Shown piece after piece: positions 8,707 through 45,076 of a stretch of DNA of 64,000 nt. Made by a program: the position numbers and the translations under genes. The stretch is taken from NCBI GenBank assembly GCA_965232515.1, contig CBDDPY010000002.1, positions 4,224,001 through 4,288,000 of the forward strand, given 5' to 3'. Positions within the stretch are counted from its first letter, which is position 1; every line of letters begins with the position of its first letter. Origin of the DNA: Alphaproteobacteria bacterium (GTDB taxonomy: Bacteria; Pseudomonadota; Alphaproteobacteria; GCA-2731375). A model generated the notes under the pieces. That model was not told the DNA's origin. It was given only the letters and a program-made list of their open reading frames with translations, and ran no database searches.

Positions 8707-8735
8707 TGATTGCTGGTGATTGCTATTTGATTGCT
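8707..8735 (+). promoter_or_regulatory. Putative integrase arm-type binding sites (3x TGATTGCT)
   Basis: TGATTGCT at 8707, 8717, 8728; the same motif occurs at 44292 and 44303 inside the other end. Confidence 0.7.
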
Positions 8736-8748
8736 GGCCGGCGGTGCC

Positions 8749-20392: not shown

Positions 20393-20447
20393 GATGACCC
20401 CTCCAGTACCCGAAGGTTGCATCAGAGGACGTCAAATCACCACCGCA

Positions 20448-21200: not shown

Positions 21201-21343
21201 ATGGCTTCGACGTTTGTTGTGTTGTTGTACAAATTGCACGTCGATACATCTTAGCTGGAGCAGCAAGGCGATGCACAAAGCTGGAGGTACGGCGCCTTAT
21301 CAGTTTCGATGGAAGGGCGCTTACTTGATGGAAAGGGGGGCCC

Positions 21344-24252: not shown

Positions 24253-24520
24253 GACCCCAAAACACTCCCACCGCAAAACGCGTTAACCGACAAGCGATTA
24301 GACCGAAACTCCATTGAGCCATTGCACCATTTTGGTGTGGAAGTGGCAATGGGTTCTCGCGCAACCCAAAACTGCGGAACGAGCAATTTCGCAGATTGGC
24401 GTCCGCTCAGGGACTGTTTGGACGTGGTACCGACATGCCTCTGTTTGGACACCAGAAGGTCGCCGACGAGGACCCAAATTTGCGATGAGAATTGAGCCGG
24501 CAGCTTACATTAAGGAAGTT

Positions 24521-26260: not shown

Positions 26261-27279
26261 ATGATTTGCCACGTCAGGATCGGGAAGCGTGGCACCGCGC
26301 ACTTACGCCCGGTGACATTCTTGCCGGCGAGGGGCTGGCGGCGCACTGGTCGGACAGCACTCGAGAATCGATCATGGTCGCCTACAAGCGTTGGCTTGGA
26401 TATCTGAACAAGATGGATCCGACGGCAATGGCTGAGCGACCGGGCGACAGGATCACGCCCTCCCGTGTGCAAGGTTACGTCAGGCAGCTTCAGCAGGAAG
26501 TATCGCTCTGCGCGCAGCGGGACTACATCGGCCATCTTTGCACAGCAACGCGGGCGCTCGCGCCGGACCTTGATCGCACATGGTTGTTGGCGATACGGCG
26601 GCGCCTTACTCAGCTATCACGCCCGACGCCGAAGCGAGATCGCCTTGTCCCAACAGAACAGCTTATCGAGCTCGGCATTTCCCTGATCGAGCGTGGCAAA
26701 TGGGCGACGACGTTGACGCCCCTGTATCGGGCGGTGCTCGTCCGGGACGGCTTGATGATCGCGCTTCTCGCGACGCGACCGATCCGCCGCAGCAACCTGG
26801 TGAACCTTCGGATCGGTCAGCACATCCTGACATCGAGCAACGGTGACTTCGACCTACTAATCCCCGCTGCGGAGACAAAGAATCGGCGTCACATCGATTG
26901 GCGGCTTCCGGAGTTGCTGACGCCACACATGCAGACGTATCTAACAGACTATCGTCCAAAGTTCCGCAATGCTGAAAATCATGAATGGTTATGGGCGTCG
27001 GCTAGGGGCGGCGGGCTCTGCGCCGCGGCAGTCAATCATCAGGTTGCGCGCCGTACGCGTGACGCGTTCGGATTCGCCATCAGCCCTCACATGTTCCGAA
27101 GCTGTGTCGCGACAACGATCGCAGAGCGAGATCCTGCAGCTACGCCCACGGCAACGCACTTGCTGGGCCATCGCAGTGCAGAAACAACCGAACGGTTTTA
27201 CAACAGGGCTGGGGCGACTTTGGTGACTCAAGCGCACCAAGCGCGCTTACTCGCGATCCGACGCAGCAGCGGTGCTTGA
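26257..27279 (+). CDS. Tyrosine recombinase family protein (second of tandem pair)
   Basis: RPIRRSNL, ETKN, HMFR, LLGH, RFY. Confidence 0.85.
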   Translation: MNDLPRQDREAWHRALTPGDILAGEGLAAHWSDSTRESIMVAYKRWLGYLNKMDPTAMAERPGDRITPSRVQGYVRQLQQEVSLCAQRDYIGHLCTATRALAPDLDRTWLLAIRRRLTQLSRPTPKRDRLVPTEQLIELGISLIERGKWATTLTPLYRAVLVRDGLMIALLATRPIRRSNLVNLRIGQHILTSSNGDFDLLIPAAETKNRRHIDWRLPELLTPHMQTYLTDYRPKFRNAENHEWLWASARGGGLCAAAVNHQVARRTRDAFGFAISPHMFRSCVATTIAERDPAATPTATHLLGHRSAETTERFYNRAGATLVTQAHQARLLAIRRSSGA

Positions 27280-27775: not shown

Positions 27776-28024
27776 TTAGTCAGCAAAATCCCGCAGTCGG
27801 GGGCAAACGGCCCGGCCCATGATGTTGTTGGGCGCATACCAGAAATCGACGCTGACAACCGACATACCTGTGAAGTAGGTGCATGTCAGCACGTCCTGAC
27901 CTTGACCAGATGGCTGATGCTGCTTGGAGGCTACTAACAGACCCTGAGTTGTGAGAATCAAGGTCAGCCAAGCAATCAGCCCGATCAGAGCACAAAGGCT
28001 GGCTGCCAGCCCTAACGCTCGCAT
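27776..28024 (-). CDS. YobH-like small membrane-anchored protein
   Basis: N-terminal TM, GLLVAS, CTYFTG, G...CP pattern. Confidence 0.55.
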   Translation of the reverse strand: MRALGLAASLCALIGLIAWLTLILTTQGLLVASKQHQPSGQGQDVLTCTYFTGMSVVSVDFWYAPNNIMGRAVCPRLRDFAD

Positions 28025-28250
28025 GGAAGCCGCTCACCACGCCGCCATAAACGCGGCTCGACAAATTCGCCTCGCCAAATTCCGAGGCCGTTCTCTCGGG
28101 CTTTGTCTTCCGCCACGATGTACTCGGTGCGCAGCTCATCAGGCAGGTATTGCCGGTATGCAGCGGCCCAGCCTTGGCGGATAAGCTCTAGGTGTAGATC
28201 AAGGTCATCGGCATACGCAGTGACAATCGGGCTGCCATAGCGGCCGACCG
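28012..28250 (-). pseudogene. C-terminal fragment of a second thermonuclease
   Basis: RYG.P.VT, YLPDELR..Y and WRRGERLPCE shared with 19862-20392; lacks DGDT/IDAPE. Confidence 0.75.
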
Positions 28251-28370
28251 CCGCAACGACATTGACTGTCATAATCAAAGAATCTGCCATAGCAACTTAA
28301 GATCTTCACATGTAATCTTTTTCAACCAATGATAATTATTCCTGTCCGACTTACCAGGGAGACGACGCTA

Positions 28371-32484: not shown

Positions 32485-32814
32485 TCACGCGGCTTCGCGG
32501 GAGAGTTGGCGGCGCAGGTTTGCGGCCTCGCCCACCATCACAATGCAGATGCTGGTGGCCATGGTGGAACGGCCCAGCGGGTTGGCTCGGTGATACTTCA
32601 GCGCCCGCGCCAGCTTCAGCAGGATATGCCCGGTGAAATCCGCCCCGATGTCGTTGTGCACCGTCAGCAGATCGTCGGTCAGGTTGCCGGGATAGACCGG
32701 GGCTAGATCGCGGGCGCGGTCGTAGAACTTGGCGGCATCGCGGACCTGGCGCTTGCGGCTGGCAATACCCATTTGCCGGGCTTGCTGGCGGGCTTTGTCG
32801 AGAGCGGTTGTCAT
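32485..32814 (-). CDS. Hypothetical protein, divergent from the HTH regulator
   Basis: 109-aa ORF ending REAA. Confidence 0.55.
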   Translation of the reverse strand: MTTALDKARQQARQMGIASRKRQVRDAAKFYDRARDLAPVYPGNLTDDLLTVHNDIGADFTGHILLKLARALKYHRANPLGRSTMATSICIVMVGEAANLRRQLSREAA

Positions 32815-32852
32815 GATCGTGCGGCCTTGGACGATTGTATTTGCATCTTATG

Positions 32853-32909
32853 TGACTTAATATAAGTCATTATTGACGCAGTTTCAACAGATTTCGGTCA
32901 CAAATGACC
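32853..32909. promoter_or_regulatory. Putative operators in an AT-rich divergent promoter
   Basis: Inverted repeats TGACTTA-ATA-TAAGTCA (32853-32869) and GGTCA-CAAA-TGACC (32896-32909); TTGACG at 32873. Confidence 0.55.
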
Positions 32910-32923
32910 AAATTTAATTCACT

Positions 32924-33157
32924 ATGATGACCGGCGCACAAATCAGGATGGCTCGCGGCTACCTCAAATGGTCAGTTCAAGAGCTGGCGAGCAAAGCCGG
33001 CGTCGGCGCGTCGACAGTGCAGCGGATGGAAGCGGTTGAGGGTGTCCCGGCCGCGTCGGGCAAGAACCTTGCGGCCGTCCAAAAAGCCCTAGAGGCTGCA
33101 GGTGTCCGGTTCATAGACGAGAACGGCGGCGGGCCGGGCGTGCGACTGAAGGGCTAG
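32924..33157 (+). CDS. XRE family HTH regulator
   Basis: QIRMARGYLKWSVQELASKAGVGASTVQRME..ALEAAGVRFIDENGGGPGVRL. Confidence 0.9.
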   Translation: MMTGAQIRMARGYLKWSVQELASKAGVGASTVQRMEAVEGVPAASGKNLAAVQKALEAAGVRFIDENGGGPGVRLKG

Positions 33158-33160
33158 GCG

Positions 33161-33322
33161 ATGTGGACGACTATCGCGGCCCTCATTTCCCTGTTCGCCA
33201 TCAGCGCGACGATCTGGGTATTCGTCTATCTGGATACCGGCCTTGGGCTGATGTGCGCGGCCATCCTGGCTGGCGGATTGTTTTATCGTTGGATGCTCAA
33301 TCGAGACAATCCGTCAGCGTGA
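33161..33322 (+). CDS. 53-aa two-TM membrane protein
   Basis: Hand translation MWTTIAALISLFAISATIWVFVYLDTGLGLMCAAILAGGLFYRW...; starts 4 nt after the XRE stop. Confidence 0.55.
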   Translation: MWTTIAALISLFAISATIWVFVYLDTGLGLMCAAILAGGLFYRWMLNRDNPSA

Positions 33323-34174
33323 CTATTTATCCGAATCGCGCGCGCGATTCGGATAAAGCAAGAAAACCAATAGCTCGGCCGCTTGGGCCAACTTGGCGTT
33401 TTCATCTTCCAGGCATAGGGTTTCTAGGAGAGTGAGGGCGTGCCCCAAGTTCATGTTGCCGAGTATGTTTTCGCTGTCGTTCAGGTTCTTGTTTGTGGCG
33501 GTCAGATAGCCGGCAACCCATTGCTCCACGGCATATCGATAATTGATTGTCTCGCCGTCGTCTGGTTGCTGTCGTGCTGCGACAAATTCGGCACAACTGC
33601 GCTGGCCGGCGGCAAAGGCTACGTAGCCGCTTCCGGTTGGCGGCGGGCCTACCCGCGTAGCCTGTTCGCCAAAGCGAGGCTTGGGTTTGTCATCCAAAGC
33701 CGCCGCACATTTAGCCAAACGCAAGAGCGCCTTGTTAGAGCCGGTCAGATCAAAGCGGAACGTCTGCGGGTCGGTTTCGACGTAGAGGGCGAACCCGCGT
33801 CGCAATGCCTCAACGTGGCCTTCTTCAGCGCCAAGCACGACACGGAAAGAATCAACGTCGAGCACCTCGATACGGAAGTTGCCCAACTCAAGCGCATCCG
33901 TTCGCACGAAAGCGACCAGATCTCTTTCATAGAAGTCGAATCCGTCTTTTGCGATCACGACAGACAGCCCGCCTTGGCGTGACAGCAATATTGCTAGCCA
34001 TTCACCATTCGGATATCGCTGGTTTATCTGGCATTGCCGATCCGAAATAGCGGAGCCAGACCATAGTCCGGCTTTGAACTCATGACGGGCATCGGCCCGG
34101 GTAAAGGCCGGGATCGCGAGCGCCAATAGCGCCAACATCACGCCCCATACGATCCCTGCCTTAATGCCGTTCAT
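33323..34174 (-). CDS. Secreted two-domain hypothetical protein (C-terminal HdeA/Rap1a-like Cys pair)
   Basis: Signal peptide; SCAEFV..WVAGYLTATN..LC. Confidence 0.65.
   Translation of the reverse strand: MNGIKAGIVWGVMLALLALAIPAFTRADARHEFKAGLWSGSAISDRQCQINQRYPNGEWLAILLSRQGGLSVVIAKDGFDFYERDLVAFVRTDALELGNFRIEVLDVDSFRVVLGAEEGHVEALRRGFALYVETDPQTFRFDLTGSNKALLRLAKCAAALDDKPKPRFGEQATRVGPPPTGSGYVAFAAGQRSCAEFVAARQQPDDGETINYRYAVEQWVAGYLTATNKNLNDSENILGNMNLGHALTLLETLCLEDENAKLAQAAELLVFLLYPNRARDSDK
33326..33357. repeat. Perfect 32-bp palindrome with no loop
   Basis: TTTATCCGAATCGCGC|GCGCGATTCGGATAAA. Confidence 0.95.
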
Positions 34175-34350
34175 GGCCAACCCCAACCGGTTGCGATACC
34201 CGATTAGATCAGTCTGACGCATCGGCGTTGAAACCGGAATAACGGCCGGGATGTCCGGCAGTTAAATTACACATAAATAACGTAAAATTTTTCTTCATAC
34301 GGATCGGTGCTGGTGATATTGTATTTTCGTAACCAGCAAAGAGGTTAGGC

Positions 34351-34557
34351 ATGGGCCGATACACCAAGATCGTTTCGCACGCCGAAGACCCGGACGTGGT
34401 TGAGCGTGTTCGGGAGCTTGCCGAGCAAGCCGGCACGACGCCGAGCGCGTGGATACGTCAAGCGACGCGGGAGCGGTTGCGCGAAGCTGAGTGGAACGAG
34501 GCTGAATGGGAAGACGCCGAATGGTCGGATGGCTCAGACTTTGAGGGAGCGACCTGA
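34351..34557 (+). CDS. Ribbon-helix-helix-like small regulator
   Basis: VERVRELAEQAGTTPSAWIRQA; GAGG RBS; leads the virion-module operon. Confidence 0.65.
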   Translation: MGRYTKIVSHAEDPDVVERVRELAEQAGTTPSAWIRQATRERLREAEWNEAEWEDAEWSDGSDFEGAT

Positions 34558-35969
34558 TGGCGAGTGGATGGAACGGCAGCGGTCAGGTTGTTCGCTCGGA
34601 CGGCACGAGAACGGGAACAACGGTCTGGGCGCAGGCGAAAGCAGCCGGACAGAGGATCATTGCGGCGTCGCACGATGTCCACGATGAGACGCTGGCCGAC
34701 TCGATAGAGGACTGCATCAACCGGAACGGTGAGAACGCGGTTACCGCCGATATCGGTTGGGGTGGCAACAAGATCACCAATATCGTTGGCATCACGGATG
34801 GTGACGGCGACACGCAAGTTCAGATCGAAGAAGGAGCCGACGACGACACGATCCGACTTGATGCAGCGGGCACGGAAGTTGCGTCGTTCACATCCACGGC
34901 GGCATCGATCAACACCGAACTGACGGTTGCGGAAGCCAATGACGGCGCGGATACATCTCTTGTCCTGAACAATTCCGCCGCTGCCGGATCGACGGACGAG
35001 ACGGCAGCGTTCGCCTTTCAGCAGGCAGGGTTACAGGCGGGCAAGATCGTCGCCGGCCGGATCTCGAACTATTCGTCCGATGCGAACGAAGACAGCTATC
35101 TTGCCCTGTTCACGTCACAAAGCGGGACGGACACCGAAGCCCTTAGGATTGACGAGGCGGGCAAGGTCTTCATCGGCGATACGCTGAATGCAAACGCCAC
35201 CGGTTCGTCGCTCACCATCAACCAGGGCGCGAGCGATGATGAAATCCTGGCGCTTAAATCCAGTGACGTAACGCATGGAACAACGGCCGTGACGGAAACC
35301 GATACGTTCGGCTTCGTTGACAAGAATACCGCCGCTGCGGGGGGATTGAACGTTCGCGGGCTGGCGGCGGCACAGAATGTCGGCCTTAATCTTTTCGCCT
35401 ATTCGCAGAATGACGACGCAAACAAAACCACAACGGCCGGTGGGCGGATGGTGTTGTCCTCGTTCAAGGTTTCCGGGACCGATATCACTGACTCCGGCGC
35501 AAACTCGAACATCTGCATCTGGCAGCATCGTTCGGGTGGCGCTAATCGTATCGCCATGATCCTTGACGAGGACGGCGATCTTCATGTCGATGGCTCGGGT
35601 ACGCTTTCGACGTTTGACGCCTTCAATGACGCCGCTCTTGTGCGCACTTTTGACATGATTCGCTCGCCAAACGAGGTCATCAAGTCGAAGTGGGACGAGT
35701 TTGTCGAATACGGACGTGCCGATCTTGTGAGAGCCGGCATCCTCGGTGATATCTCGCCGGAAGATGAGGCCCGAGGCCATGCACCGATGGTCAATGTTAC
35801 CCAGCTTCAGAGGTTACATAACGGTGCGATCTGGCAGCTTCACTGTCAGATGCGGGAGATGGGCGAGAAGCTCGAAAACCTGCATCGGGACGTTGGGCTT
35901 ATTCCGACGTTCAAGCGGGGGCTGCGGCGGATCTTCTCGGGCGGAAAGTCGGCGGTAGTGAATGGGTGA
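34557..35969 (+). CDS. Phage tail fibre-like protein
   Basis: N-terminal anchor-like WNGSG..CINRNG...TADIGWGGNKITNI; DGDTQVQIEEGADDDTIRL; Gly/Thr/Asp-rich body; chaperone-like helical C-terminus. Confidence 0.7.
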   Translation: MASGWNGSGQVVRSDGTRTGTTVWAQAKAAGQRIIAASHDVHDETLADSIEDCINRNGENAVTADIGWGGNKITNIVGITDGDGDTQVQIEEGADDDTIRLDAAGTEVASFTSTAASINTELTVAEANDGADTSLVLNNSAAAGSTDETAAFAFQQAGLQAGKIVAGRISNYSSDANEDSYLALFTSQSGTDTEALRIDEAGKVFIGDTLNANATGSSLTINQGASDDEILALKSSDVTHGTTAVTETDTFGFVDKNTAAAGGLNVRGLAAAQNVGLNLFAYSQNDDANKTTTAGGRMVLSSFKVSGTDITDSGANSNICIWQHRSGGANRIAMILDEDGDLHVDGSGTLSTFDAFNDAALVRTFDMIRSPNEVIKSKWDEFVEYGRADLVRAGILGDISPEDEARGHAPMVNVTQLQRLHNGAIWQLHCQMREMGEKLENLHRDVGLIPTFKRGLRRIFSGGKSAVVNG

Positions 35970-36363
35970 GATTATGCATAGCACCGCCGAATTGATGGCC
36001 CTGCCGGCGGATGAGCTGGAACGGCTGATAGCCGAACATCCCGAACGTGTGGCCGCTGTATTGGCGGACGGCAACCCAACCACAGCAGACGGGCAGGCGC
36101 TGGGCTCACGGCTCAGCAGCGGTGCGCTGCATACCTTGGTTGCGGCTTGGCATGGCTTAGATATCCCGGCGCACCTGAACCTTGACGACAATGCCCGCTG
36201 TGACGTGCTGCTACGTCTCTGCGGCATTGAGCCGCCGGCCTATGACGCGTTGTCGGAAAACGACAAAGGCAAGATCAACAATTTGATGCAGGCCGGCATG
36301 GATGCCAAGGCCGCGTGGATTGAGGTGACGGGCGAGCCGGCTCCGGAAGCGAGGACGCACTAA
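35962..36363 (+). CDS. Hypothetical protein in the virion module
   Basis: Overlaps both neighbours. Confidence 0.6.
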   Translation: MGEIMHSTAELMALPADELERLIAEHPERVAAVLADGNPTTADGQALGSRLSSGALHTLVAAWHGLDIPAHLNLDDNARCDVLLRLCGIEPPAYDALSENDKGKINNLMQAGMDAKAAWIEVTGEPAPEARTH

Positions 36364-37778
36364 TGACGGGCACAATGTCACGATTGCTCAGTGCCATGAC
36401 GGAAAGGCAGGCACTTGGACCCTCGGGACAGACGCCGGCTTCTGCTTTTGCCCAACAGCTTCTGACCAATCAGCCTGGCGGGCTTGGAAACCTCGCCAGC
36501 CCGATCATCGCAGCGATGTTGTTGAAACGAGACCAGGAACAGCGACAGCGCATCGAGGGCGAGGACGCGGACATGTTCCGTCAGGCGTTGAAAGCGCTTC
36601 AAGGCGGCGTCAAAGAGTTCCGCAGCCCGGACACGGGCGAGGTGCTCGTACCCGGACAACAGCCCGGCGCACAGGCGTTCGCGCAGGTGCTGGCGGGTAA
36701 CCCCCGCACCGCTCCCATTGCAGCAAACGTCATGGCCGACGCATTGCAGCAGAACCGGCCTAAGTTCGTGAACGTGCCGAATGTGGGGCTGGTCCGAACA
36801 CAGGGCGACACGGCGGAAACGGTCATAGAGGCGCGGCCGGACGAGTTTGAAACGATCAGGCTCAATAACGGTGTGCTGGCCCAGCGGAACAAGCGCACCA
36901 ACAAAATTTCATCTTTGCCACAGACACGCCCGCCATCGGCGCGACAAGCGCGCATACAGTCGTTGATGGACCAGGGCTTGGACCAGACAACGGCAGCCAA
37001 CGTCGCGGATGGCTTTATTCAGATTTTGCCGGACGCGCTGGGCCGACCCGTTGCCGTTAATGTCGTGACGAACGAACAGACGCCCTTACGTGTCAGCAGC
37101 GTCCAAACCAGCCAACAGCCAGCGTCAGCCGCGTCACAAGTTACACAGCCGACACAGAGTCCCGAGCCGGCGAACGTTCCGCAATCTGCCGTCAATGTAG
37201 TTGACGGCACACCCAGTGACAGCGCATCTCCGCCCGCGTTGCCAACCGACCGACCGCCTTTGACGGCCTTCGAGGCTGTCCAGGGCGGTACGGGCATCCT
37301 GCCGGCTATACAGGGCGCAATCTCAAGCACAGCCGGTCAGTTCTTCGAGGGTGCGCAGTTTCCGGGGGTGGCCCAAAGGCGCGCATTCTTTGCCGGCCTT
37401 CAGCAGCAAGCCATTAGAGCGTTCTCGACTGGCGGCAAGACGCCCGTGGTCGAGCAAGAGCGGATCGCAAACATCTTCGCGAAATTGGGCGCATTGGAAA
37501 GCGAGGCGGACGCCGTGGCGTCGCTGCAAACCGCCGTGCAGATGATCGACCAGCGCATTGCGCAGAACGAACGAGCGATGCGGGCTCCCAATACGCCGAC
37601 AAAAGATATCCCCGAGCTGGCCCGAGGCATCACCGAACTCAGGAACCTGAAAGAAGTTGTGGGCGTCCCTTTGCCAGGACAGGTGCAGCAGAACGGGCCG
37701 CAGCAGACGGGTGAGGATTTCGGCGACCTGACGACCGATGAAGCGGATGAGCTTCGACGCCTGCGGGGGCAGCAGTGA
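36363..37778 (+). CDS. Putative DNA-ejection (internal virion) protein
   Basis: Gln/Ala/Gly-rich and helical, no Cys or Trp; positioned after the fibre gene and before a large helical ORF. Confidence 0.6.
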   Translation: MTGTMSRLLSAMTERQALGPSGQTPASAFAQQLLTNQPGGLGNLASPIIAAMLLKRDQEQRQRIEGEDADMFRQALKALQGGVKEFRSPDTGEVLVPGQQPGAQAFAQVLAGNPRTAPIAANVMADALQQNRPKFVNVPNVGLVRTQGDTAETVIEARPDEFETIRLNNGVLAQRNKRTNKISSLPQTRPPSARQARIQSLMDQGLDQTTAANVADGFIQILPDALGRPVAVNVVTNEQTPLRVSSVQTSQQPASAASQVTQPTQSPEPANVPQSAVNVVDGTPSDSASPPALPTDRPPLTAFEAVQGGTGILPAIQGAISSTAGQFFEGAQFPGVAQRRAFFAGLQQQAIRAFSTGGKTPVVEQERIANIFAKLGALESEADAVASLQTAVQMIDQRIAQNERAMRAPNTPTKDIPELARGITELRNLKEVVGVPLPGQVQQNGPQQTGEDFGDLTTDEADELRRLRGQQ

Positions 37779-40348
37779 TGCCGACGCCGCGCGAAGAACT
37801 CACCATTCGCCGCGAGCTAGCCGCCGGTAATCTGTCACCGAGACGGGAATTGGAATTGCGGCGTCAGTTGTCGGATATCCCGACGCAGGGTGTTTCACCT
37901 TTCAACACGGCGGCGCAACCATTTGTCGGCTTCAACATGGGCTTGGCCGATGTTATCGATCTTCCGCAACGCGTCGGCACGGCGATAACGAACCCGGTTC
38001 GTGAGCTTGTCGGTTTGGAGCCGGCTCCCATCGATCAGACATCGCCAATTACCGATGCGCTGAGATCGGGTGCCGAGACGTTCCCGGCTACGACGGGCGT
38101 AGAGCGCGGGCTAAGGCGTGTAGGGCAAGAGTTCGGTGCAACGGCTCCGATAGCCGCACTGCCGTTTGTCGGCGCGTCGGGACGTGCCGCACAGACAGCC
38201 GCCAACGTCGGCACGCGAGGCTTTCAGGCTTTCCTGAACACTGTCAGGTCCACACCTGGTAGGGCGGCGGTAGGTGAAACCATTGCCACGGCCGGCGCTG
38301 GTACTGGCGCGGCAATAGCGAACGAACTAGCGCCCGGAAGCCAGGGCGCGGAGATCGCCGGCCAGCTAATTGGCGGTGTATCACCCGCCGCCCTTGCCAC
38401 GACGCCGACAAGCCTTGCCGTTCGCGCCGGTCGGAATGTCGCAAGCCGGTTTTCCGAGGATGCCATGCGCACCCGCGCACAGGATCAGGCGCGGGAAGTG
38501 ATCGGCGGCAACCTGACGCAAGAGGCAACCCAGAACCTCAATCAAGCCGACGACGTGACACGCGAGATACCGGGCTTCGATCCGACGCTTGCCGAGCGCA
38601 CAGGATCGCCCGGCCTGACGGCAACGCAACGGCGCATCGAGGCGCAGTCAAGCGGCGCGGACCTGGAAGCGGTCGCGGCCCGCAGACGCGCCAATGAGGC
38701 GGCTATCAACCGCTTCGGGCAGGTACGCGGCCCTTTGGGCGAGGACGCACCCGAATTTGTGATCGATACCGCGGCCCGCCGCGTTGACGATCTGCGCAGC
38801 ACGGTGGAACGCCAACAGGCCAGGACCGCCGGCCAGCGTCAGGACTTGGCGGAAAGCCTGCAACCGACTGACAGGGCTGCACAGGGCCGTGGCTTGCGGG
38901 ACACGCTCTTTGAGGCCCGGTCACGATCAAGCCAGGAAATGACGGCGCTTGCCGAACGGTTGGGCATCAACGACGCTGATGTCACCGCCGAGTTCACGAA
39001 TGCCCGGCAGCGCATCGAACAGGCATTTGCGCCGGGGTCGGTTTTTGAGGACCGGGCCAATGCGCCCGCCGTCTTGCAGGCAATCCGGAACGCTCCCGAG
39101 CAAGTGACGTTTCAGGATTTGAAGGCCCTTCGCGAACGCATCGGTGACGATCTGATGGACGCCGAAACGTCCGCCAATCCGAGTTCGAAGAAAATCCGCA
39201 CGCTGTCTACGTTGCAGCGGATGGTCGATAGCGTGATTGACGATCTTACCCGCACGGCAGACCCGGACCTGGCAGACCGTTACCGCCAATTTCGCACGAC
39301 CTATTTCAACGATCACGTTGCCCGGTTCAACCAGGGCCCGGCCTTCCGGGTAAGGCAGAAAGACGGCCGCGGATTTTTCCGTATCGCCGACGAAAAGGTA
39401 GCGCAGGCGTTTTTCGCACCCGGCGACGTCAGGTCCGCCCGTCAGTTCCGGGCGGTGTTCGGTGACAACCCCGACGCCAACAGCGCCATACAGGCCGTGG
39501 CTATGGATAGCTTGAGAAATGGCGTCGTGCGGGACGGCGTGATTAATCCGAGGGCGCTCGAAAACTGGGTTCGCAAACATCGGTCGGTGTTGGACGAGTT
39601 TCCGGAGATCGACGCGCTGGTGAGAGATGTTGCGTCGGCCGACGAATCCTTGCGAGCGCGTCAGACGCAACTCAGGGCCAGAACACAGACCATCGAAAAC
39701 CAAGCCATCACGAAGGAGCTTACCGCCTTCGGCCGCGCCACCAAGACGAGCGGAAGTGTGATTGACGCGGCCATCCGCGAGCCGCGCAAGATGGCCCAAC
39801 TTGCCGGCCGGTTGAAACGCAACCCCGATGCTTTGGCGGGATTGAGGCGGAACGTCTGGAACCGTGCGATATCGGGAAGCTCGGAAGACATCTTGCGGTT
39901 CATGAACGACAACGCCGGATCGCTAAGGGTGTTGTTCGGCGGCCGGCATTTCCGGGACATCGAAACCATCGCCGCCGCGCGAGCCATGCTCGAACGGGTG
40001 CCGTCGCCGACCGGGGCCGCATTTCAGCCCCGCCCGCTAGAAGGCGTCGAGCGCGCCATAGGCCAGGGCTTGCCGCAACTGTCTAGCCGCCTGTTTGCCG
40101 CCAGGACCGGGCGTGTCGGACGCGGCTATCTGGCGGTGGATACGTTCCTCAGAGGCATTCGAGGCCGTGCTGCCGTCGATGCCGACGACCTGCTGCGGGA
40201 AGCGCTCTACGACAGTCAGGTTGCCCGCGACATGGCCGAAGCCGTCAGGGTCGGTGAAGTCAAGCCGGATGTGGCGAAGCGCCTTGGTGCGCGCCTGTTC
40301 AATCTCGGGCAGCCATTCGAGTTTAGCGACGAGCAACAGAGGCCGTAG
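37775..40348 (+). CDS. Putative large DNA-ejection / DNA-transfer protein
   Basis: 857 aa, Ala/Arg-rich, Cys-free; Gly/Ala hydrophobic stretch; PTLAERTGSPGL motif; layout like podoviral ejection proteins. Confidence 0.65.
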   Translation: MMPTPREELTIRRELAAGNLSPRRELELRRQLSDIPTQGVSPFNTAAQPFVGFNMGLADVIDLPQRVGTAITNPVRELVGLEPAPIDQTSPITDALRSGAETFPATTGVERGLRRVGQEFGATAPIAALPFVGASGRAAQTAANVGTRGFQAFLNTVRSTPGRAAVGETIATAGAGTGAAIANELAPGSQGAEIAGQLIGGVSPAALATTPTSLAVRAGRNVASRFSEDAMRTRAQDQAREVIGGNLTQEATQNLNQADDVTREIPGFDPTLAERTGSPGLTATQRRIEAQSSGADLEAVAARRRANEAAINRFGQVRGPLGEDAPEFVIDTAARRVDDLRSTVERQQARTAGQRQDLAESLQPTDRAAQGRGLRDTLFEARSRSSQEMTALAERLGINDADVTAEFTNARQRIEQAFAPGSVFEDRANAPAVLQAIRNAPEQVTFQDLKALRERIGDDLMDAETSANPSSKKIRTLSTLQRMVDSVIDDLTRTADPDLADRYRQFRTTYFNDHVARFNQGPAFRVRQKDGRGFFRIADEKVAQAFFAPGDVRSARQFRAVFGDNPDANSAIQAVAMDSLRNGVVRDGVINPRALENWVRKHRSVLDEFPEIDALVRDVASADESLRARQTQLRARTQTIENQAITKELTAFGRATKTSGSVIDAAIREPRKMAQLAGRLKRNPDALAGLRRNVWNRAISGSSEDILRFMNDNAGSLRVLFGGRHFRDIETIAAARAMLERVPSPTGAAFQPRPLEGVERAIGQGLPQLSSRLFAARTGRVGRGYLAVDTFLRGIRGRAAVDADDLLREALYDSQVARDMAEAVRVGEVKPDVAKRLGARLFNLGQPFEFSDEQQRP

Positions 40349-40355
40349 CCAGCCC

Positions 40356-40778
40356 ATGGAATATTACCTTTCCCCCTGGCGTTTCGAGGCAGAGCCATAT
40401 CCGACTTGGCGCAGTCCGTTCGATGATGACGTGGGGTTGATCGATCTGCGCTCGCCGGCCCAGATCCGGTCGGACGGCATTGCCGAAGGCTACGGCCTGT
40501 TTGCAACGCGGGTGCGGCAGACCATTCCTGACTCGATCTACCTCGGGGACTCACTTCACGGCCAGATCGATACAACGACCCTCAAGCGAGAATTGGGTCT
40601 TGGTGAAGACATCGTTGCGACCGGCCTGGGCGAGGTAATTTACGAGTTGCTGACGATGCATGCTGATCCGATGGTATCGACACGTTGGGGCTGTCTGATG
40701 CCCTGCCAAAACGGTCGCAATGAAATTTGGCTTGGCGGTCGCATTGCTCGAATGCTGGTTCTGCCCGGTCAGTGTTGA
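40356..40778 (+). CDS. Hypothetical protein
   Basis: ATG 8 nt after the upstream stop. Confidence 0.5.
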   Translation: MEYYLSPWRFEAEPYPTWRSPFDDDVGLIDLRSPAQIRSDGIAEGYGLFATRVRQTIPDSIYLGDSLHGQIDTTTLKRELGLGEDIVATGLGEVIYELLTMHADPMVSTRWGCLMPCQNGRNEIWLGGRIARMLVLPGQC

Positions 40779-40936
40779 GCGTCCGCGTCTGGAATGGATG
40801 CGCGCGCAATATCCGGATCTGTTTCGCCGCGCCTTGCTGTTGATGCGCGACGTGAACGCGGCTGCTGCAGAGATCGTCATGCACAACGCGGCGATATTGG
40901 ACGCCGCAAGTGAACAACACCGGGAGGTTCGCGAAA

Positions 40937-41356
40937 ATGCCGCCGCTCGATAACCAGCGTCATGAAAAATTCGCCCAAGCCCTCGCGGAAGGCATGTCAG
41001 CAGATGCCGCTTATGCCGAAGCCGGCTACAAACCCGATAGAGGCAACGCGTCTCGCCTGACGTCAAAAGACAGCATCCAAGCCCGTGTTTATGAGCTGCA
41101 GCAGGCAGCAGCGAAAAAGGCCGTGCTGACGCTTTCCGATCATCTGGAAACGCTCAAAGACATCAGGGATGCGGCCATAGCTGCACGACAGTACGCCGCT
41201 GCGACGAATGCGGAGGTCCATAGAGGCAAGGCGGCGGGTCTGTATGTTGAGCGCATTGAGACATCCGATGTGGTGCGTGTCGTAAGCGCTGAACCGATGA
41301 CGGATGACGAATGGGAGCAGCAGTATGGCGCCCAGACATCGGAAGCGACGCATTGA
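40937..41356 (+). CDS. Terminase small subunit-like protein 1
   Basis: GGAGG RBS; NQRHEKFAQALAEGMSADAAYAEAGYK...NASRL...IQARV.EL. Confidence 0.8.
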   Translation: MPPLDNQRHEKFAQALAEGMSADAAYAEAGYKPDRGNASRLTSKDSIQARVYELQQAAAKKAVLTLSDHLETLKDIRDAAIAARQYAAATNAEVHRGKAAGLYVERIETSDVVRVVSAEPMTDDEWEQQYGAQTSEATH

Positions 41357-41643
41357 TGCCGGACACCAGATTCAAACCCGGCCAGAGCGGAAACCCGAAA
41401 GGCAGGCCGAAGGGCGCACGCTCGAGGCTGTCTGAGGCTTTCTTGCAAGAGCTGGCCGAACACTGGGAACAGAATGGGCGCGACGTGCTGGACCAAGTGA
41501 GAAACAACGATCCATCAACCTATCTGCGCGTCATTGCCTCACTAATCCCGAAGGGCATCAGTTTCTCGGGCGATATCAGCTACGCCGCTATACCAATTCC
41601 GGTCAGCGAGCGTGCGCCACTCGATATCGAAACCACGCACTGA
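41356..41643 (+). CDS. DUF5681-like (TerS-type) protein 2
   Basis: TRFKPGQSGNPKGRPKGAR..L...FL..L...W...G. Confidence 0.75.
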   Translation: MPDTRFKPGQSGNPKGRPKGARSRLSEAFLQELAEHWEQNGRDVLDQVRNNDPSTYLRVIASLIPKGISFSGDISYAAIPIPVSERAPLDIETTH

Positions 41644-41670
41644 TCAGCCTGTTCTTACAGGGATATACAG

Positions 41671-42096
41671 ATGGCGAAGTGGACACAGTGGACGGCAAAA
41701 AAAGAGGCAGACTTCCTCGCGATCCTTAGCAATGGCAGCAGCGTACAGGCGGCGGTACAGGCTATCGGGTGCAGCCGGTCGAACGCGTACAAGCGCAGAC
41801 AGAATGACCCGGAATTCGCCGCTCAGTGGGATGCGGCTATCGAAGCCGGCAGCGACCTACTCGAAGACGAAGCCAAGCGCCGCGCGCATGAAGGCGTTCT
41901 GGAGCCGGTCTACTACCAGGGCCAGGAAGTCGGCCAAGTGCGAAAATACTCTGACACGCTCTTGATGTTCATGTTGAAAGCCAGACGCCCGGACAAGTTC
42001 AAGGAACGCAAGGAACAGCAGCTAACGGGCAAAGATGGCGAGCGTCTCAAGCCAACCATCAACCTTACTATCGGATCTGAACCTTCATCTGCATGA
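41671..42096 (+). CDS. Terminase small subunit-like protein 3 (HTH type)
   Basis: FL..L..G.SV..A...G.SR..AY..R..DPEFA..WD.A; LEDEA.RRA.EG; RKYSDTLLMFMLKARRP.KF; LTGKDG. Confidence 0.8.
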   Translation: MAKWTQWTAKKEADFLAILSNGSSVQAAVQAIGCSRSNAYKRRQNDPEFAAQWDAAIEAGSDLLEDEAKRRAHEGVLEPVYYQGQEVGQVRKYSDTLLMFMLKARRPDKFKERKEQQLTGKDGERLKPTINLTIGSEPSSA

Positions 42097-42139
42097 GAAG
42101 CAGGGACAGGCGTTCCTGAGCCATGCGACGGAGATCATG
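42035..42139 (+). pseudogene. N-terminal stub of a large terminase
   Basis: LHEKQGQAFLSHATEIM overlapping the TerS3 end; similarity stops where a YGGAAGGGKS-type Walker A would begin. Confidence 0.55.
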
Positions 42140-42215
42140 AGAGAACTCAGCTCTTCTAAGACCGACATACCACGTAACGTTGATTTTCGCTCGCCAATGG
42201 GTCAGATTAGTTGGC

Positions 42216-42719
42216 ATGGGGGAAAATGGAAAATCTGCTATCCAAGCAGCTCTTGTCGGAGGAATATTCGCCGTCGTAGCTGCAGTGTTGGGGGCGTTTG
42301 TAGGATATTGGATAGCTTCGCCGGGCGCGGACAGATTAAGGCAAATTGAAGCAGACACTGCTAGAGATCTGGCAACATACTTCTCGGAATTCATAGCATC
42401 TCGTGAACGCTTAGTGCGGCACTTGAAAGGTGAACCTCAGGAGAAAGCACCAGAAGAAGAGATCAACAAATACGTCGAGGAAGCCAAAAAGCTGGACCAG
42501 CAATGGAGAACATCAACGGTAGCGCTGGCGGCTGCACTACGTTTTGCCGAACATAATTTTGACGAGGGTGTTCAGAGCTTAGCCAGCGAATTCATCGAGT
42601 GGCATGCCGAGCAAGAAGCAGCGCGCGCTGGAAAGGCAATCACAGAGTGGGTTGATACAAGCAAGTACCAAGATTGGCGGGATAGGATCTTGAAGGCAAC
42701 ATCTCAAGCTGTGAGATGA
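42216..42719 (+). CDS. Membrane-anchored hypothetical protein
   Basis: N-terminal TM helix; helical body. Confidence 0.6.
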   Translation: MGENGKSAIQAALVGGIFAVVAAVLGAFVGYWIASPGADRLRQIEADTARDLATYFSEFIASRERLVRHLKGEPQEKAPEEEINKYVEEAKKLDQQWRTSTVALAAALRFAEHNFDEGVQSLASEFIEWHAEQEAARAGKAITEWVDTSKYQDWRDRILKATSQAVR

Positions 42720-42738
42720 GCCGTACTCAGGGGCGAAA

Positions 42739-42939
42739 ATGAAAGCTTCGGCTTTTGTCGGATTTTTGTTGCTGGGCTTTCTCGTTGGGGCATTTTCGGC
42801 TGCAGTGGCGGAGGTAAAACAACCCGGCAAGCCGCCTGGTTGCCGGTATTTCTGCCCACCGCCGAACCCGTTGCCGTTTCCAAAGCCGATTAGGCAGCCA
42901 ACCGAGAAAAGCATCAGCAGTCTGGATACATATCGCTAA
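42739..42939 (+). CDS. Small secreted Pro-rich peptide
   Basis: AGGGG RBS; signal peptide; CRYFC and PPPNPLPFPKP. Confidence 0.45.
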   Translation: MKASAFVGFLLLGFLVGAFSAAVAEVKQPGKPPGCRYFCPPPNPLPFPKPIRQPTEKSISSLDTYR

Positions 42940-43057
42940 CGCCGGCTCGAACCTTCGGCCGTGAGTAAGGGCCAATGTCGAGACCCATCGGCAATGGCAG
43001 TGGTGCGGGTGATGCTGGAGATTTTGGGCGGCGTAAGGTGTATCGGACAACAGCAAA

Positions 43058-43582
43058 GTGAAATCGACGCACGAGACGGACCGCTTAACTGCGAGCAAGG
43101 CGTTCTACAGAGCTTTGACAGGACGCGATGAGCTTGGAGTCGTCATACGGGCTCACATCTACATCGAACAACTCGTCAACGAGACGCTAGAATGGTTAAT
43201 TCCATACCCTGACGCCTTGGATGCTATGGACTTGGATTACTCTCAGCGGGTCCGCCTATTGGTGGCACTCGGCTTGAAGGATCAGCACCTTGGTTCATTG
43301 CTAGCGCTCGGGAAACTAAGGAACGAGTTTGCGCACAGACTGGACGCCAAACTTACTGCTGGAAGGATGAATGACTTTTACAAGCGCTTCGACAGCGAGG
43401 ATAAGAAAATCATTCAGAGAGTTTACGATTCGACACGAAAGAAAGCTGGCGATCGCTCCAAGCCGAAGAAAATAACCAGCCTTGAGCCGAAGGATCGGTT
43501 TGCCCTATACGCAGCGACAATTCATGGGGCATTGCGCGCTGCGATAAGCGAATTGTCGGAGCAAAAAGAGCAAGCCCGTTAG
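43058..43582 (+). CDS. MtlR/HEPN-like protein
   Basis: RAHIYIE ... LRNEFAH. Confidence 0.7.
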   Translation: MKSTHETDRLTASKAFYRALTGRDELGVVIRAHIYIEQLVNETLEWLIPYPDALDAMDLDYSQRVRLLVALGLKDQHLGSLLALGKLRNEFAHRLDAKLTAGRMNDFYKRFDSEDKKIIQRVYDSTRKKAGDRSKPKKITSLEPKDRFALYAATIHGALRAAISELSEQKEQAR

Positions 43583-43609
43583 ACTGAGCTTGCTCTTTCC
43601 GGGGTAAAC

Positions 43610-44011
43610 TCAATCTTCGTCAAACCGATGCGTATCCTCATACAGCGCGATGGCTGCAAAATACTCTGACACTTCGCCAGGATCGGCCAGCCAGACGTTA
43701 TCTTCGGTGATAAGCAATCCCGACTTATCGAAAGCGTAAATAAGCTTCGGGTCAATGCCAGATCTGCGCATTGCCTCTATCATGTCCTGGTGCACGGCAT
43801 CGGCATCGCGCGACGTCGGTTCTTCGGCGTCGGGATCGAAAAACACTGGATCGCCAGGCGCCGGCTCGCGGCCGAATTTTTCGATGAACGCCGGTCGCTG
43901 CTTTTTCAACACCTCCATTGCTTCCGGCGATAGCGGCGTACTGGTTTCTTGGCGGCTGGATTTGGTGGAACGACGTTGACGCCGCGGGCGCCCTGATTTG
44001 CTCTTCGGCAT
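43610..44011 (-). CDS. Conserved hypothetical protein
   Basis: AGGGAGG RBS; FIEKFGREP.PGDPVFFD, GIDP.LIYAF.K.GL. Confidence 0.7.
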   Translation of the reverse strand: MPKSKSGRPRRQRRSTKSSRQETSTPLSPEAMEVLKKQRPAFIEKFGREPAPGDPVFFDPDAEEPTSRDADAVHQDMIEAMRRSGIDPKLIYAFDKSGLLITEDNVWLADPGEVSEYFAAIALYEDTHRFDED

Positions 44012-44350
44012 AGCTGCCTCCCTTCTGAAAGCAGCTACCCATTATGTAGATCAGAAACAGGCCGACTATGGAATTTCGCGGGTAATCTTCCATAGTCTCG
44101 TCACGGTTTGTTCGCTACTAGTAGCCGCCGAGTTATGCTCCGAGCAACGCCTGAGCCAGGGAAGCCGGACCTATTTGGGCCGTGAGGGAGTCCTGCCCCT
44201 CCAGGCGCATCCCCAATCTGACGGCAGCCGTCCCGCTATTTCCCGGAACTACCCGAAAAATCCCGCTTCAGAGCTTCGAAACCGCGATTTCTGATTGCTA
44301 TGTGATTGCTAGCCGAGCGCTTGTTCGGCAGTGGTATTGCTAAGTCATTG

Positions 44351-44405
44351 AAAAGATGGAGCGGGCGATGAGATTCGAACTCACGACTTCAACCTTGGCA
44401 AGGTT
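44351..44405. repeat. Right attachment site (55-bp direct repeat)
   Basis: Identical to 8548-8602. Confidence 0.97.
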
Positions 44406-44431
44406 GCGCTCTACCCCTGAGCTACGCCCGC
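44357..44431 (-). tRNA. tRNA-Gly (GCC)
   Basis: GCGGGCG acceptor stem, anticodon arm CAACC-TTGCCAA-GGTTG, TTCGAAT T-loop, encoded CCA. Confidence 0.98.
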
Positions 44432-44584
44432 GTCGCTATGCTGCTCGCCATATCCGGAGAGCGAGCGGATAATAAGCAAATCGCTTGCCGTTGCAAGCGT
44501 CAAGAGGCGGGTTTTCCGGCGAACCCCGATCTGGCATAACGGCGCGCCAAAGCGACGATAACAAAACCGCCAACAGAACCCGCC

Positions 44585-45076
44585 ATGCCCGCGACACCGG
44601 AAGACCTGTTTGCCCGCCTGGACGACCTGGGCATCGCCACGACGACGCACGCGCACCCGCCGCTGCACACGGTCGAGGAGAGCCGGCGGCTGCGCGGCGC
44701 GCTGCCGGGCGGGCACTGCAAGAACCTCTATCTGCGCGACAAAAAGAAGCGCAACTGGCTGCTGGTGACGCTGGAGGACCGCGAGGTCGACCTGAAGACC
44801 GTGTCGACGGTGCTGGGCGCCGGGCGCTTGAGCTTCGGCAGCGCCGACCGGTTGATGGAGTTCCTGGGCGTGACGCCGGGCTCGGTGACGCCGTTCGCGC
44901 TGATCAACGACCCCGAACAGCGGGTGACCGTGGTGCTGGACGAAGCCATGCTGAAGGTCGATCTGTTGAACTATCATCCGCTGGTCAACACGGCGACGAC
45001 GGCGATCGCGCCCGACGACCTGCTGGTCTTCATCCGCGCCGGCGGCCACGAGCCGCAGATCGTGGCCCTGGACTAG
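44585..45076 (+). CDS. YbaK/ProX family aminoacyl-tRNA deacylase
   Basis: HPPLHTVEES, KNLYLRDKK, LGVTPGSVTPF, HPLVN. Confidence 0.92.
   Translation: MPATPEDLFARLDDLGIATTTHAHPPLHTVEESRRLRGALPGGHCKNLYLRDKKKRNWLLVTLEDREVDLKTVSTVLGAGRLSFGSADRLMEFLGVTPGSVTPFALINDPEQRVTVVLDEAMLKVDLLNYHPLVNTATTAIAPDDLLVFIRAGGHEPQIVALD

Follow-up and report, generated by a model that had tools for sequence, protein, structure and literature searches.

A mobile island at a tRNA-Gly gene

The window, by which we mean the whole 64,000-nucleotide stretch of alphaproteobacterial DNA that was analysed, carries a low-GC island inserted at a tRNA-Gly gene. Both of the att ends that a sequence-only reading had reported are in view: an exact 55-nt direct repeat (repeat family D8, 100% identity) was located at either end, and the island bounded by them measures 35,858 bp. 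There is no third copy in the window or elsewhere in the genome, giving two copies in total. GC content is 0.49-0.64 within the island vs 0.67-0.74 beyond it, and the att repeats, the integrase and an AAA_25 helicase-like gene are all intact. The ends and backbone are as follows:

8548-8602, no strand: attL, left copy of the 55-nt direct repeat
8731-10020, plus strand: tyrosine integrase, 429 aa (phrog_1 at 2e-59)
11618-13882, plus strand: replication module (195-aa protein, AAA_25 helicase-like protein, 245-aa protein)
12189-13148, plus strand: the AAA_25 helicase-like protein with a C-terminal HTH, 319 aa (PF13481 at 6.4e-27, phrog_906 at 4e-17)
19862-20422, minus strand: SNase-type nuclease (PF00565 at 8.6e-12)
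20740-21345, minus strand: SRAP peptidase (PF02586 at 5.3e-33)
24314-27279, plus strand: two coupled tyrosine-recombinase-like genes, 648 aa and 340 aa (phrog_1 and phrog_216 at 1e-6 to 1e-9)
32924-33157, plus strand: small XRE-type HTH regulator, 77 aa (type read by eye)
42180-44011, no strand: att-proximal cargo of lower GC (0.53), ORFs of 179, 174 and 133 aa
44351-44405, no strand: attR, right repeat copy, overlapping the 3' part of the tRNA gene
44357-44431, minus strand: tRNA-Gly(GCC)

The phrog_906 match relates the replication module to a DNA polymerase/primase family; a primase domain proper was not recognised in it. The coupled recombinase-like genes are probably an inserted element. 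An Endonuclease_NS nuclease is also encoded on the island. The 174-aa cargo ORF matches phrog_5483, a family of unknown function. AlpA (PF05930) has no match anywhere in the host genome (G000).

A nine-gene operon with fibre-like, ejection-type and small-terminase genes

Between 34351 and 42096 lie nine intact genes, all on the plus strand. Their coordinates bear out the claim of a tightly coupled, co-directional operon, as neighbours either overlap by 1-8 nt or are spaced by 7-131 nt:

34351-34557, plus strand: small RHH-like protein ending in an acidic EW-repeat tail, operon gene 1
34557-35969, plus strand: fibre-like protein, 470 aa
35962-36363, plus strand: 133-aa protein, in the slot held by E1 in related phages
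36363-37778, plus strand: E2, ejection-type protein, 471 aa
37775-40348, plus strand: E3, large all-helical ejection-type protein, 857 aa
40356-40778, plus strand: 140-aa protein (no PHROG match)
40910-41356, plus strand: TerS-A, small-terminase-like, 148 aa (phrog_51 at 8.8e-14)
41311-41643, plus strand: DUF5681 protein (PF18932 at 2.9e-11)
41671-42096, plus strand: TerS-B, small terminase, 141 aa (phrog_4044 at 8.9e-39, phrog_1482 at 7.5e-9)

The first gene had been read as an RHH-like regulator. A resemblance is there, and it is weak: PF01402 (6.8e-4, 19.9 bits, cut-off 20.5) and PF07704 (7.8e-5) both score below their cut-offs. The 133-aa protein matches no PHROG or Pfam family and resembles neither the E1 proteins nor the 134-aa ORF of phage contig L006.

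The 470-aa protein has 175 homologues, and the coverage profile shows a widespread C-terminal module (about aa 190-445) behind a nearly unique N-terminus. To annotated tail fibres, those of two Synechococcus phages, it is similar (38.5%) over 94 aa only. Its structural model (pLDDT 65) gives weak fold matches with fibres in the top rows: the best VIA Z is 4.8, and the best Foldseek match, itself weak (E 0.023), is to a Bdellovibrio fibre. We assign this protein as a putative fibre, only moderately supported by these fold matches and the one 94-aa alignment.

The TerS-like genes proved to be real, on the strength of the phrog_51, phrog_4044 and PF18932 matches and of similarity to annotated phage TerS. 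TerS-A scores 25.2 bits with PF03592, just below the cut-off of 26.1, and is 42% identical to the gene after E3 in a related island (genome G438, below). For the DUF5681 protein, a start codon check places the likely start at the ATG at 41356, overlapping the TerS-A stop. TerS-B is found in 160 phage records and is 43-48% identical to the TerS of RcRudolph, RcSimone-Hastad and POR1.

E2 and E3 occupy the position of podovirus ejection genes

Podoviruses eject internal virion proteins with their DNA (gp7, gp20 and gp16 in P22; gp14, gp15 and gp16 in T7), and the 471-aa and 857-aa products had been proposed to be such proteins. E2 has 108 relatives, 75 of which match by BLAST only the ORF directly upstream of an E3 homologue (loci L006-L009); it also has weak direct matches to the E2 proteins of genomes G228, G249 and G438, and its ESM clusters are viral. 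For E3, a set of 5.8e9 proteins yields 18 non-self homologues, one of which carries an SLT lytic transglycosylase domain as a fusion, and BFVD gives 66 viral matches at E<=1e-3, including "Injection protein" and LT_GEWL proteins. Its AF2 model is predicted to be all-helical (pLDDT 77).

In phage contigs and in the complete prophages of G228 and G215, the E2-E3 pair ends the podovirus virion module and adjoins a PHROG "DNA ejection protein", and E3 is the last large gene of that module in L001, L006, L007, G228 and G215, so that by position these five loci carry a podovirus ejection cassette. L006 reads tail fibres, phrog_3287, phrog_4287 ("DNA ejection protein"), E2, E3 and endolysin, and L001 reads phrog_3287, phrog_1645, phrog_4287, an 819-aa ORF and an E3-like gene; L007 has a head-closure protein upstream. 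In both prophages the cassette is downstream of TerL (phrog_38), portal (phrog_156) and major capsid protein (phrog_334). On gene position, we assign E2 and E3 as a podovirus ejection-type (internal-virion) pair.

What did not hold is membership in the P22 gp20 or gp16 sequence families. The ESM features had offered leads toward the P22 gp20/Inj_translocase cluster (0.91, 139 shared features) and, at rank 25, toward the gp16 family, for which PF26808 was named solely by the ESM Atlas output. PF16928 (Inj_translocase) has no match at E<=0.1 in G000, G249, G438, G228 or G215, and hhalign gave probabilities of 0.2% for profile A6 against gp20 and 0.3% for profile A3 against gp16.

Head, portal and large terminase genes are absent

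The absence of capsid, portal, scaffold, lysis and intact TerL genes, noted earlier by eye, is borne out. None of these families was matched, in PHROGs and/or Pfam, by the 43 island ORFs scanned, which comprise all candidates of at least 110 aa plus ORFs of 68, 104 and 140 aa; for lysis the negative applies to these scanned ORFs, as a small holin or spanin below 110 aa could have escaped. Three TerL proteins and two portal proteins, used as tblastn queries against the window, gave no match. Across the whole 7.4-Mb genome, PF03237, PF03354, PF04860, phrog_38, phrog_156 and phrog_334 have no matches, and the three PHROGs are likewise without matches in the whole genomes G249 and G438, whereas both positive controls match. 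The island thus has none of the three genes (TerL, portal, major capsid protein) by which an intact prophage would be recognised. The lower-GC cargo at 42180-44011, where TerL would be expected, bears no similarity to TerL.

Could the island instead be a small but complete phage with head genes diverged beyond recognition? Most of the scanned ORFs outside the operon do have no family match, but there is little room for a head: the only ORFs of at least 400 aa are the integrase, the 648-aa recombinase, a 400-aa minus-strand ORF, the fibre-like gene, E2 and E3, the unmatched ORFs are spread over both strands without a late-operon arrangement, and the related islands described below (21.8 and 25.4 kb) offer even less space. 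We consider this explanation very improbable.

Related islands share the core; related prophages are complete

A search for related elements with the same gene set found islands in two other alphaproteobacterial genomes, G249 and G438, which like the host are without the cognate head genes genome-wide. Both share the core, in which E2 and E3 are followed directly by a small terminase:

G249 island, 21,798 bp, exact 48-bp repeat at tRNA-Glu: E1, E2, E3, TerS (phrog_1482 at 7.8e-16), SNase, XRE HTH, SRAP, O-like replication initiator, integrase
G438 island, 25,450 bp, 22/23 repeat: 360-aa protein, E2, E3, TerS, replication-module homologues, AlpA, integrase

All three islands have E2 and E3 at full length, with no break in either reading frame, at 33-45% identity. 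Backbone genes are also common to the islands and not to full prophages: the integrase is 27% and 23% identical to those of the G249 and G438 islands, respectively; the SNase-type nuclease (37.5%) and SRAP peptidase (33%) recur in G249; homologues of the 195-aa and 245-aa replication proteins flank a 501-aa gene in G438; and the 77-aa regulator has homologues in both islands (44% in G249, 36% in G438) and in genome G029 (41%).

These comparisons bear on the most serious alternative, that a temperate podovirus, or parts of one, came to lie in a tRNA island, lost head, portal and TerL by deletion, and remains as an operon without present function. The sequence-only reading had held that close relatives with capsid and portal would make this a decayed prophage, and this comes out half true, as some relatives are of that kind: G228, G215 and contigs L006, L007 and L001 have full phage modules. 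In a quick tree the E3 of the window clusters with phage-context sequences, apart from the E3 of the other islands, and for that reason the cassette may have been captured independently instead of being inherited within an island lineage. The size of the island, its patchy GC, the inserted recombinases and nucleases and the lower-GC cargo where TerL would follow TerS-B also fit decay. Against it, not one of the nine coupled operon genes is broken, no fragment of TerL, portal or major capsid protein was detected by tblastn or HMM, and the capsid-less G249 and G438 islands keep the E2-E3-TerS adjacency, with ORFs longer than 1000 aa still intact, on a backbone that full prophages do not have. 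A satellite family predicts capsid-less islands that share an E2-E3-TerS core and a backbone, and random decay does not; the recurring intact genes therefore tip the balance, if not heavily, toward such a family. Decay strikes us as a rather unlikely account, though one to be taken seriously.

A candidate satellite with its own DNA-delivery parts

We favour, with some reserve, the view that the island represents a family of phage satellites in Alphaproteobacteria that has not been described before. It probably parasitises phages and supplies DNA-delivery parts of its own, because it has ejection-type, fibre-like and TerS genes without head, portal or motor and because two other islands have the same layout. 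The proposal of a satellite with its own injection parts stands as far as ejection-gene position, TerS, headlessness and the two further islands go; membership in the P22 gp20 or gp16 sequence families has fallen away.

Several findings weigh against a satellite. The host genome contains no paralogue of the island virion genes, no TerL and no portal; no sequence homology is detectable between E2 or E3 and ejection proteins that have been studied by experiment; only three such islands turned up in about 900 genomes searched; AlpA is absent from the window's island; and the island, with its 35.8 kb, its patchy GC and the recombinases and nucleases inserted in it, looks more mosaic than classical satellites.

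In the model we propose, a podovirus of the G228/L006 type would infect, and the island would excise and replicate. One or more island TerS proteins would direct the large terminase of the helper onto island DNA, and the island would therefore fill helper-made heads. E2 and E3 would be loaded into those heads and would later make the channel by which DNA enters the next cell; for the island of the window, the island-encoded fibre would also be mounted on the particle. The three TerS types may let the island exploit more than one helper lineage. As a general scheme, that such satellites take only the head and motor of a podovirus and swap in their own ejection proteins, here with their own receptor-binding fibre and three TerS types for several helper lineages as well, is a tentative suggestion that we would not yet back.

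The same gene content would also suit an interference or defence island, in which decoy ejection proteins, fibre and TerS spoil the particles or packaging of related podoviruses, with no transfer of the island itself. Known satellites do interfere with their helpers, and several nucleases (SNase and Endonuclease_NS) are carried. The integrase, exact att repeats and replication module point instead to a mobile element, and in known islands TerS serves self-packaging; we regard a purely defensive role as improbable.

Were the satellite model correct, the host range and entry route of the particle would be set by the satellite and not by the helper: with its own ejection proteins and fibre loaded, the satellite would decide which cells receive DNA and would also determine the encounter with exclusion systems working at the DNA-entry step. 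Predictions of transduction range would change, and the islands would offer a natural system in which to ask which podovirus ejection parts are interchangeable. That host range is altered or exclusion bypassed is a speculative idea.

Comparison with known systems

Described satellites redirect packaging or reshape capsids, and in the literature we found no described satellite that encodes phage-ejected DNA-delivery proteins. PICI-type elements typically have an integrase with att repeats, AlpA, a primase/helicase module, TerS or an equivalent, a length of about 10-18 kb and induction with high-frequency transfer by a helper phage, and lack capsid, portal, tail-tube and large terminase genes; in many of them TerS redirects packaging. 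The island resembles them in its integrase and att repeats, replication module, TerS and lack of capsid, portal, tail-tube and TerL genes, and its relative in G438 has an int-AlpA-replication backbone. Unlike them, it has no AlpA beside the integrase, is not compact (35,858 bp, with relatives of 21.8 and 25.4 kb), and carries three TerS-like genes along with fibre-like and podovirus ejection-type genes. The cf-PICIs bring genes for capsid, portal and connector proteins and use borrowed tails; P4 alters the size of the capsid. Like these, the island is a chromosomal element that would depend on helper virion parts, a dependence predicted here from its genes; its solution is the opposite one, with no head genes and with its own predicted DNA-delivery proteins and fibre-like protein.

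The likeness to the P22 and T7 ejection cassettes lies in a run of three genes that closes the virion module and grows in size from one gene to the next, in a large all-helical member that is sometimes fused to a lytic transglycosylase (among E3 relatives), and in the PHROG "DNA ejection protein" that holds the E1 position in phages related to the island. The differences are that sequence homology to gp20 and gp16 is not detectable and that the island genes come without a head to enter.

EcCIMP1 of E. coli MP1 is a Gram-negative PICI mobilised by the temperate phage Kapi1, and the words "ejection" and "injection" do not occur in the main text of that paper (PMC11773190). In the main text of the paper on marine VEIMEs, "ejection", "injection" and "tail fiber" do not occur either, unlike the gene set seen here (PMC9618062). 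VEIMEs, which are found packaged in virions, are capsid-less, bear an integrase and encode TerS homologues (PMC9618062). The gene set of our island is likewise capsid-less, with an integrase and TerS homologues.

A single integrated element

An exact 55-nt direct repeat stands at both ends of the island; at the right end it forms the 3′ part of a minus-strand tRNA-Gly(GCC) gene. The 7.39-Mb genome holds two copies of this repeat, both of them the island ends, and a search prompted by the idea of tandem elements found no third, degenerate att copy inside; for these two reasons we treat the island as one single element of 35,858 bp. Its GC content is 0.49–0.64, versus 0.67–0.74 for the flanks. 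Read contigs end at the repeat, and the attB and attP forms are indistinguishable in them. Outside the operon described below, the island includes:

8548-8602 and 44351-44405: the 55-nt repeat
Adjoining the left repeat: tyrosine integrase (phrog_1 at 2e-59)
After the integrase: three-gene replication module with a central AAA_25 helicase-like protein carrying a C-terminal HTH
Island middle, by family scan: SNase-type nuclease and SRAP peptidase
Island middle, by family scan: two coupled tyrosine-recombinase-like genes
Island middle, by family scan: Endonuclease_NS nuclease

The middle is a mosaic in which many ORFs have no family among those scanned. The coupled recombinase-like pair (648 and 340 aa; region 23074-27279) adjoins a divergent 400-aa ORF, also without a family, that has a partial paralogue at C2:3600183-3601193 (C2 being the host contig), and this arrangement looks like an inserted multi-recombinase element within the island. 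The SNase-type nuclease gene (19862-20422) has a second, partial island copy at 28012-28290 (50% identity over 78 aa), and segment 15309-16347 has a protein-level copy, 64-90% identical, about 90 kb upstream in the chromosome and outside the island (C2:4147059-4147874). The high-GC left flank carries a 1924-aa ORF (1942-7716, minus strand) with at least nine tandem units of 333-336 nt, which is therefore a large repeat protein.

Sequencing run X3, from a second sample of the same study, covers the operon region (32800-44600) patchily and at very uneven depth, lowest at the fibre start and the TerS-B/cargo parts. In one X3 contig, position 41516 is joined to 44351, where the att begins, but one side of the joint is just 30 letters long; three joints in X3 have sides of 30 letters or fewer and are too short to trust. 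The contig may represent a variant island with another right end, or noise.

The operon, its small terminases and the fibre-like protein

The sequence-only reading had described a tightly coupled operon here, and at the coordinates it gave that description is correct. Nine co-directional genes occupy 34351-42096, with overlaps of 1-8 nt or gaps of 7-131 nt:

Gene 1: RHH-like protein, 68 aa (weak, below Pfam cut-offs)
Gene 2, 34557-35969, plus strand: fibre-like protein, 470 aa
Gene 3: 133-aa protein
Gene 4, 36363-37778, plus strand: E2, 471 aa
Gene 5, 37775-40348, plus strand: E3, 857 aa
Gene 6: 140-aa protein
Gene 7, 40910-41356, plus strand: TerS-A, 148 aa, TerS-like (phrog_51 at 8.8e-14)
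Gene 8: DUF5681 protein (2.9e-11)
Gene 9, 41671-42096, plus strand: TerS-B, 141 aa, a second TerS (phrog_4044 at 8.9e-39)

With the small terminases annotated in Rhodobacter phages RcRudolph and RcSimone-Hastad and in Pseudomonas phage POR1, TerS-B shares 43-48% identity. Scans gave no PHROG or Pfam match for the 133-aa protein and no PHROG match for the 140-aa protein; a pairwise test of the former against a 134-aa ORF of L006, a recovered phage-type locus, gave no similarity.

For the 470-aa protein we found 175 homologues, whose lengths differ widely. What they have in common with it is the C-terminal region (about aa 190-445); its first ~70 residues are nearly unique. Over 94 aa it is 38.5% identical to proteins annotated as tail fibres in two Synechococcus phages. 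The structural model is mediocre (pLDDT 65) and none of its fold matches is significant (best Foldseek E 0.023, best VIA Z 4.8). Almost all of the weak top rows are fibres, from Bdellovibrio, Mu, T4 and T5 (the L-shaped fibre, chaperone domain included), together with the 9NA tailspike. We regard "fibre-like" as plausible but no more than moderately supported. A pairwise test against an L006 fibre showed no similarity.

E2 and E3 as ejection-type proteins

PHROG and Pfam scans assign E2 and E3 to no family, and no tblastn match to E3 turned up among 50,697 phage records; it is the genomic context that decides. Among 5.8e9 proteins, E3 has just 18 homologues besides itself; none is named, and one is fused to an SLT lytic transglycosylase domain. 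In loci from metagenomes and viral contigs, the E3 gene closes podovirus-type virion modules. L006 runs tail fibre, tail fibre, phrog_3287 structural protein, 134 aa, phrog_4287 "DNA ejection protein" (the E1 position), 555 aa, E3 homologue and endolysin; L001 runs phrog_3287, phrog_1645, 714 aa, phrog_4287, 819 aa and a distant 1131-aa E3; and L007 has a head-closure protein (phrog_578) upstream. PF03237 was found in none of the three viral records behind L001-L003, which are fragments 31-61% complete.

E2 has 108 relatives in 50%-identity representatives, 75 of which match locus ORFs by BLAST, and always the ORF directly upstream of the E3 homologue (in L006, L007, L008 or L009), which makes E2 and E3 a conserved pair of phage genes. 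Window E2 and the E1 of L006 gave no similarity in a pairwise test.

The AlphaFold2 model of E3 is all-helical (pLDDT 77). With Foldseek it matched nothing in the PDB at E<=1e-3; among predicted viral proteins it matched 66 at that threshold, large and uncharacterised proteins of Caudovirales, two of them LT_GEWL proteins and one an "Injection protein". When the E3 profile was searched against the PDB by HMM, the only matches were to homeodomains and are spurious. In the ESM Atlas both proteins fall among viral clusters. The nearest cluster with a family name is P22 gp16 (rank 25) in the case of E3; in the case of E2 it is Inj_translocase, the family of P22 gp20 (score 0.91, with 139 features shared). 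Each is a lead only. Neither membership held up: the gp20-family HMM PF16928 had no matches in five E2-holding genomes, and hhalign gave a probability below 1% for E2 against gp20 and for E3 against gp16. The name ejection-type that we give to E2 and E3 therefore refers to their position and architecture and does not make them members of the P22 families. The proposal that the 471- and 857-aa ORFs are ejection proteins is supported by their place in podovirus modules, but not by P22 homology.

Absence of head genes and of a recognisable resident helper

The further claim that no capsid, portal, scaffold, lysis gene or intact TerL is recognisable between the att ends stands. No such families were found among the island ORFs scanned, and tblastn against the window gave no match to TerL or portal of POR1 and RcRudolph, nor to any virion protein of the G228 prophage (see below). 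As a candidate TerL remnant after TerS-B we considered a 104-aa ORF (42035-42349), which has no PHROG match; tblastn with the TerL proteins of POR1, RcRudolph and G228 gave chance rows only. Across the whole host genome (96% complete, 7.4 Mb), PF03237, PF03354 and PF04860 had no matches, and neither a recognisable tailed prophage nor a terminase or portal of GTA type seems to be present (Terminase_6N, TerL_ATPase and Phage_portal all absent). The island virion genes have no paralogues elsewhere in the genome. Given the lack of TerL and portal matches and of such paralogues, the genome holds no recognisable resident helper.

Related prophages and islands

Relatives were sought by profile searches of about 900 genomes of the host's class, and E3 was found in five further genomes, besides a fragment in G487. 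Of two other alignment profiles run against the genome contigs, A2 gave no relative among 33 pattern matches, and A4 found a G438 contig as the only relative. The G487 fragment (L030; G487:C349:2862-3425) weakly matches the N-terminal part of E3 (2.8e-17); its genome is incomplete and its contig small. In G029, from the host's own family, a distant E3-like ORF of 813 aa (L036; G029:C22:1-20000) has TerS and TerL (phrog_38 at 9.4e-98) about 4.2 kb upstream; the phrog_156 portal has no match in that genome, and an XRE HTH there is 41% identical to the island's.

Whether close relatives are full prophages, as they would be if the island were a decayed one, has a divided answer. G228 and G215 hold complete prophages, with TerL (phrog_38), portal (phrog_156), MCP (phrog_334) and tail genes followed by E1, E2 and E3, but G249 and G438 hold capsid-less islands. 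The G249 island (21,798 bp) is bounded by an exact 48-bp repeat of a tRNA-Glu 3′ end and carries E1 (36% over 83 aa when compared with the phrog_4287 protein of L001), E2, E3 and a TerS that overlaps the E3 stop (phrog_1482 at 7.8e-16), together with SNase, XRE HTH, SRAP, an O-like replication initiator and an integrase. Its 509-aa ORF, considered as a head gene, is not one: it matches nothing in the PDB, and hypothetical phage proteins or DUF4236 proteins match it only in part.

G438, a MAG from Sphingomonadales, shares its genus with G249, and its island (25,450 bp) has a 22/23 repeat at its ends. The cassette there comprises a 360-aa beta-rich protein, E2, E3 and a TerS 42% identical to window TerS-A; its replication region has homologues of the window's 245-aa and 195-aa proteins on either side of a 501-aa gene, and AlpA and an integrase are also present. 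Read by eye, a 535-aa ORF that resembles a large serine recombinase and two ParB-like ORFs lie there too (rc 16242-19583 of C11:1-60000), and because of these the G438 island may be composite.

Integrase and XRE HTH are common to all three islands, SNase and SRAP to the window and G249, and the replication module to the window and G438; G249 and G438 have two further genes in common. None of these shared backbone genes occurs in the G228 or G215 prophages. Phrog_38, phrog_156 and phrog_334 had no matches in the whole genomes of G249, G438 and the window's host, and both prophage genomes scored as positive controls. The profile searches recovered two islands that keep the E2-E3-TerS core and lack head genes.

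A candidate class of satellites

The three islands occupy three insertion sites in two orders of one class. In each, an intact E2-E3 pair is directly followed by TerS and accompanied by the element's own integration and replication genes, and none of the three genomes holds cognate head genes. Three independent decays would explain this less well than a satellite family, since intact E2-E3-TerS, own mobility genes and absent head genes recur at three sites, and we lean towards membership in such a family. The satellite proposal of the sequence-only reading is partly supported: gene content, absent head genes and two further islands speak for it, the full prophages among the relatives against it. 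The window island is also large, mosaic and without AlpA, and no helper phage is known; these points count against the satellite reading.

On the satellite reading, the island TerS would recruit a helper TerL, and island-encoded ejection proteins and fibre would be built into helper heads. This mechanism is an inference; what the analysis shows is the gene content and its recurrence. Both TerS types found singly in the other islands occur together in the window (TerS-A, like G438; TerS-B, of G249's PHROG family), which has the DUF5681 protein besides; this could reflect several helpers, or simply recombination. In a quick tree, window E3 groups with phage-context sequences, not with the E3 of the other islands, which also counts against the satellite reading; separate acquisition or exchange of the cassette may lie behind it.

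Full-text literature searches on phage satellites found no published description of satellite-encoded ejection or injection proteins. "Ejection" and "injection" have no occurrences in the main texts of the VEIME (PMC9618062) and EcCIMP1 (PMC11773190) papers. The element is best filed as a phage satellite, an unusually large member of a candidate class with its own ejection proteins, in this case with a fibre-like gene in addition and with three TerS-like genes.
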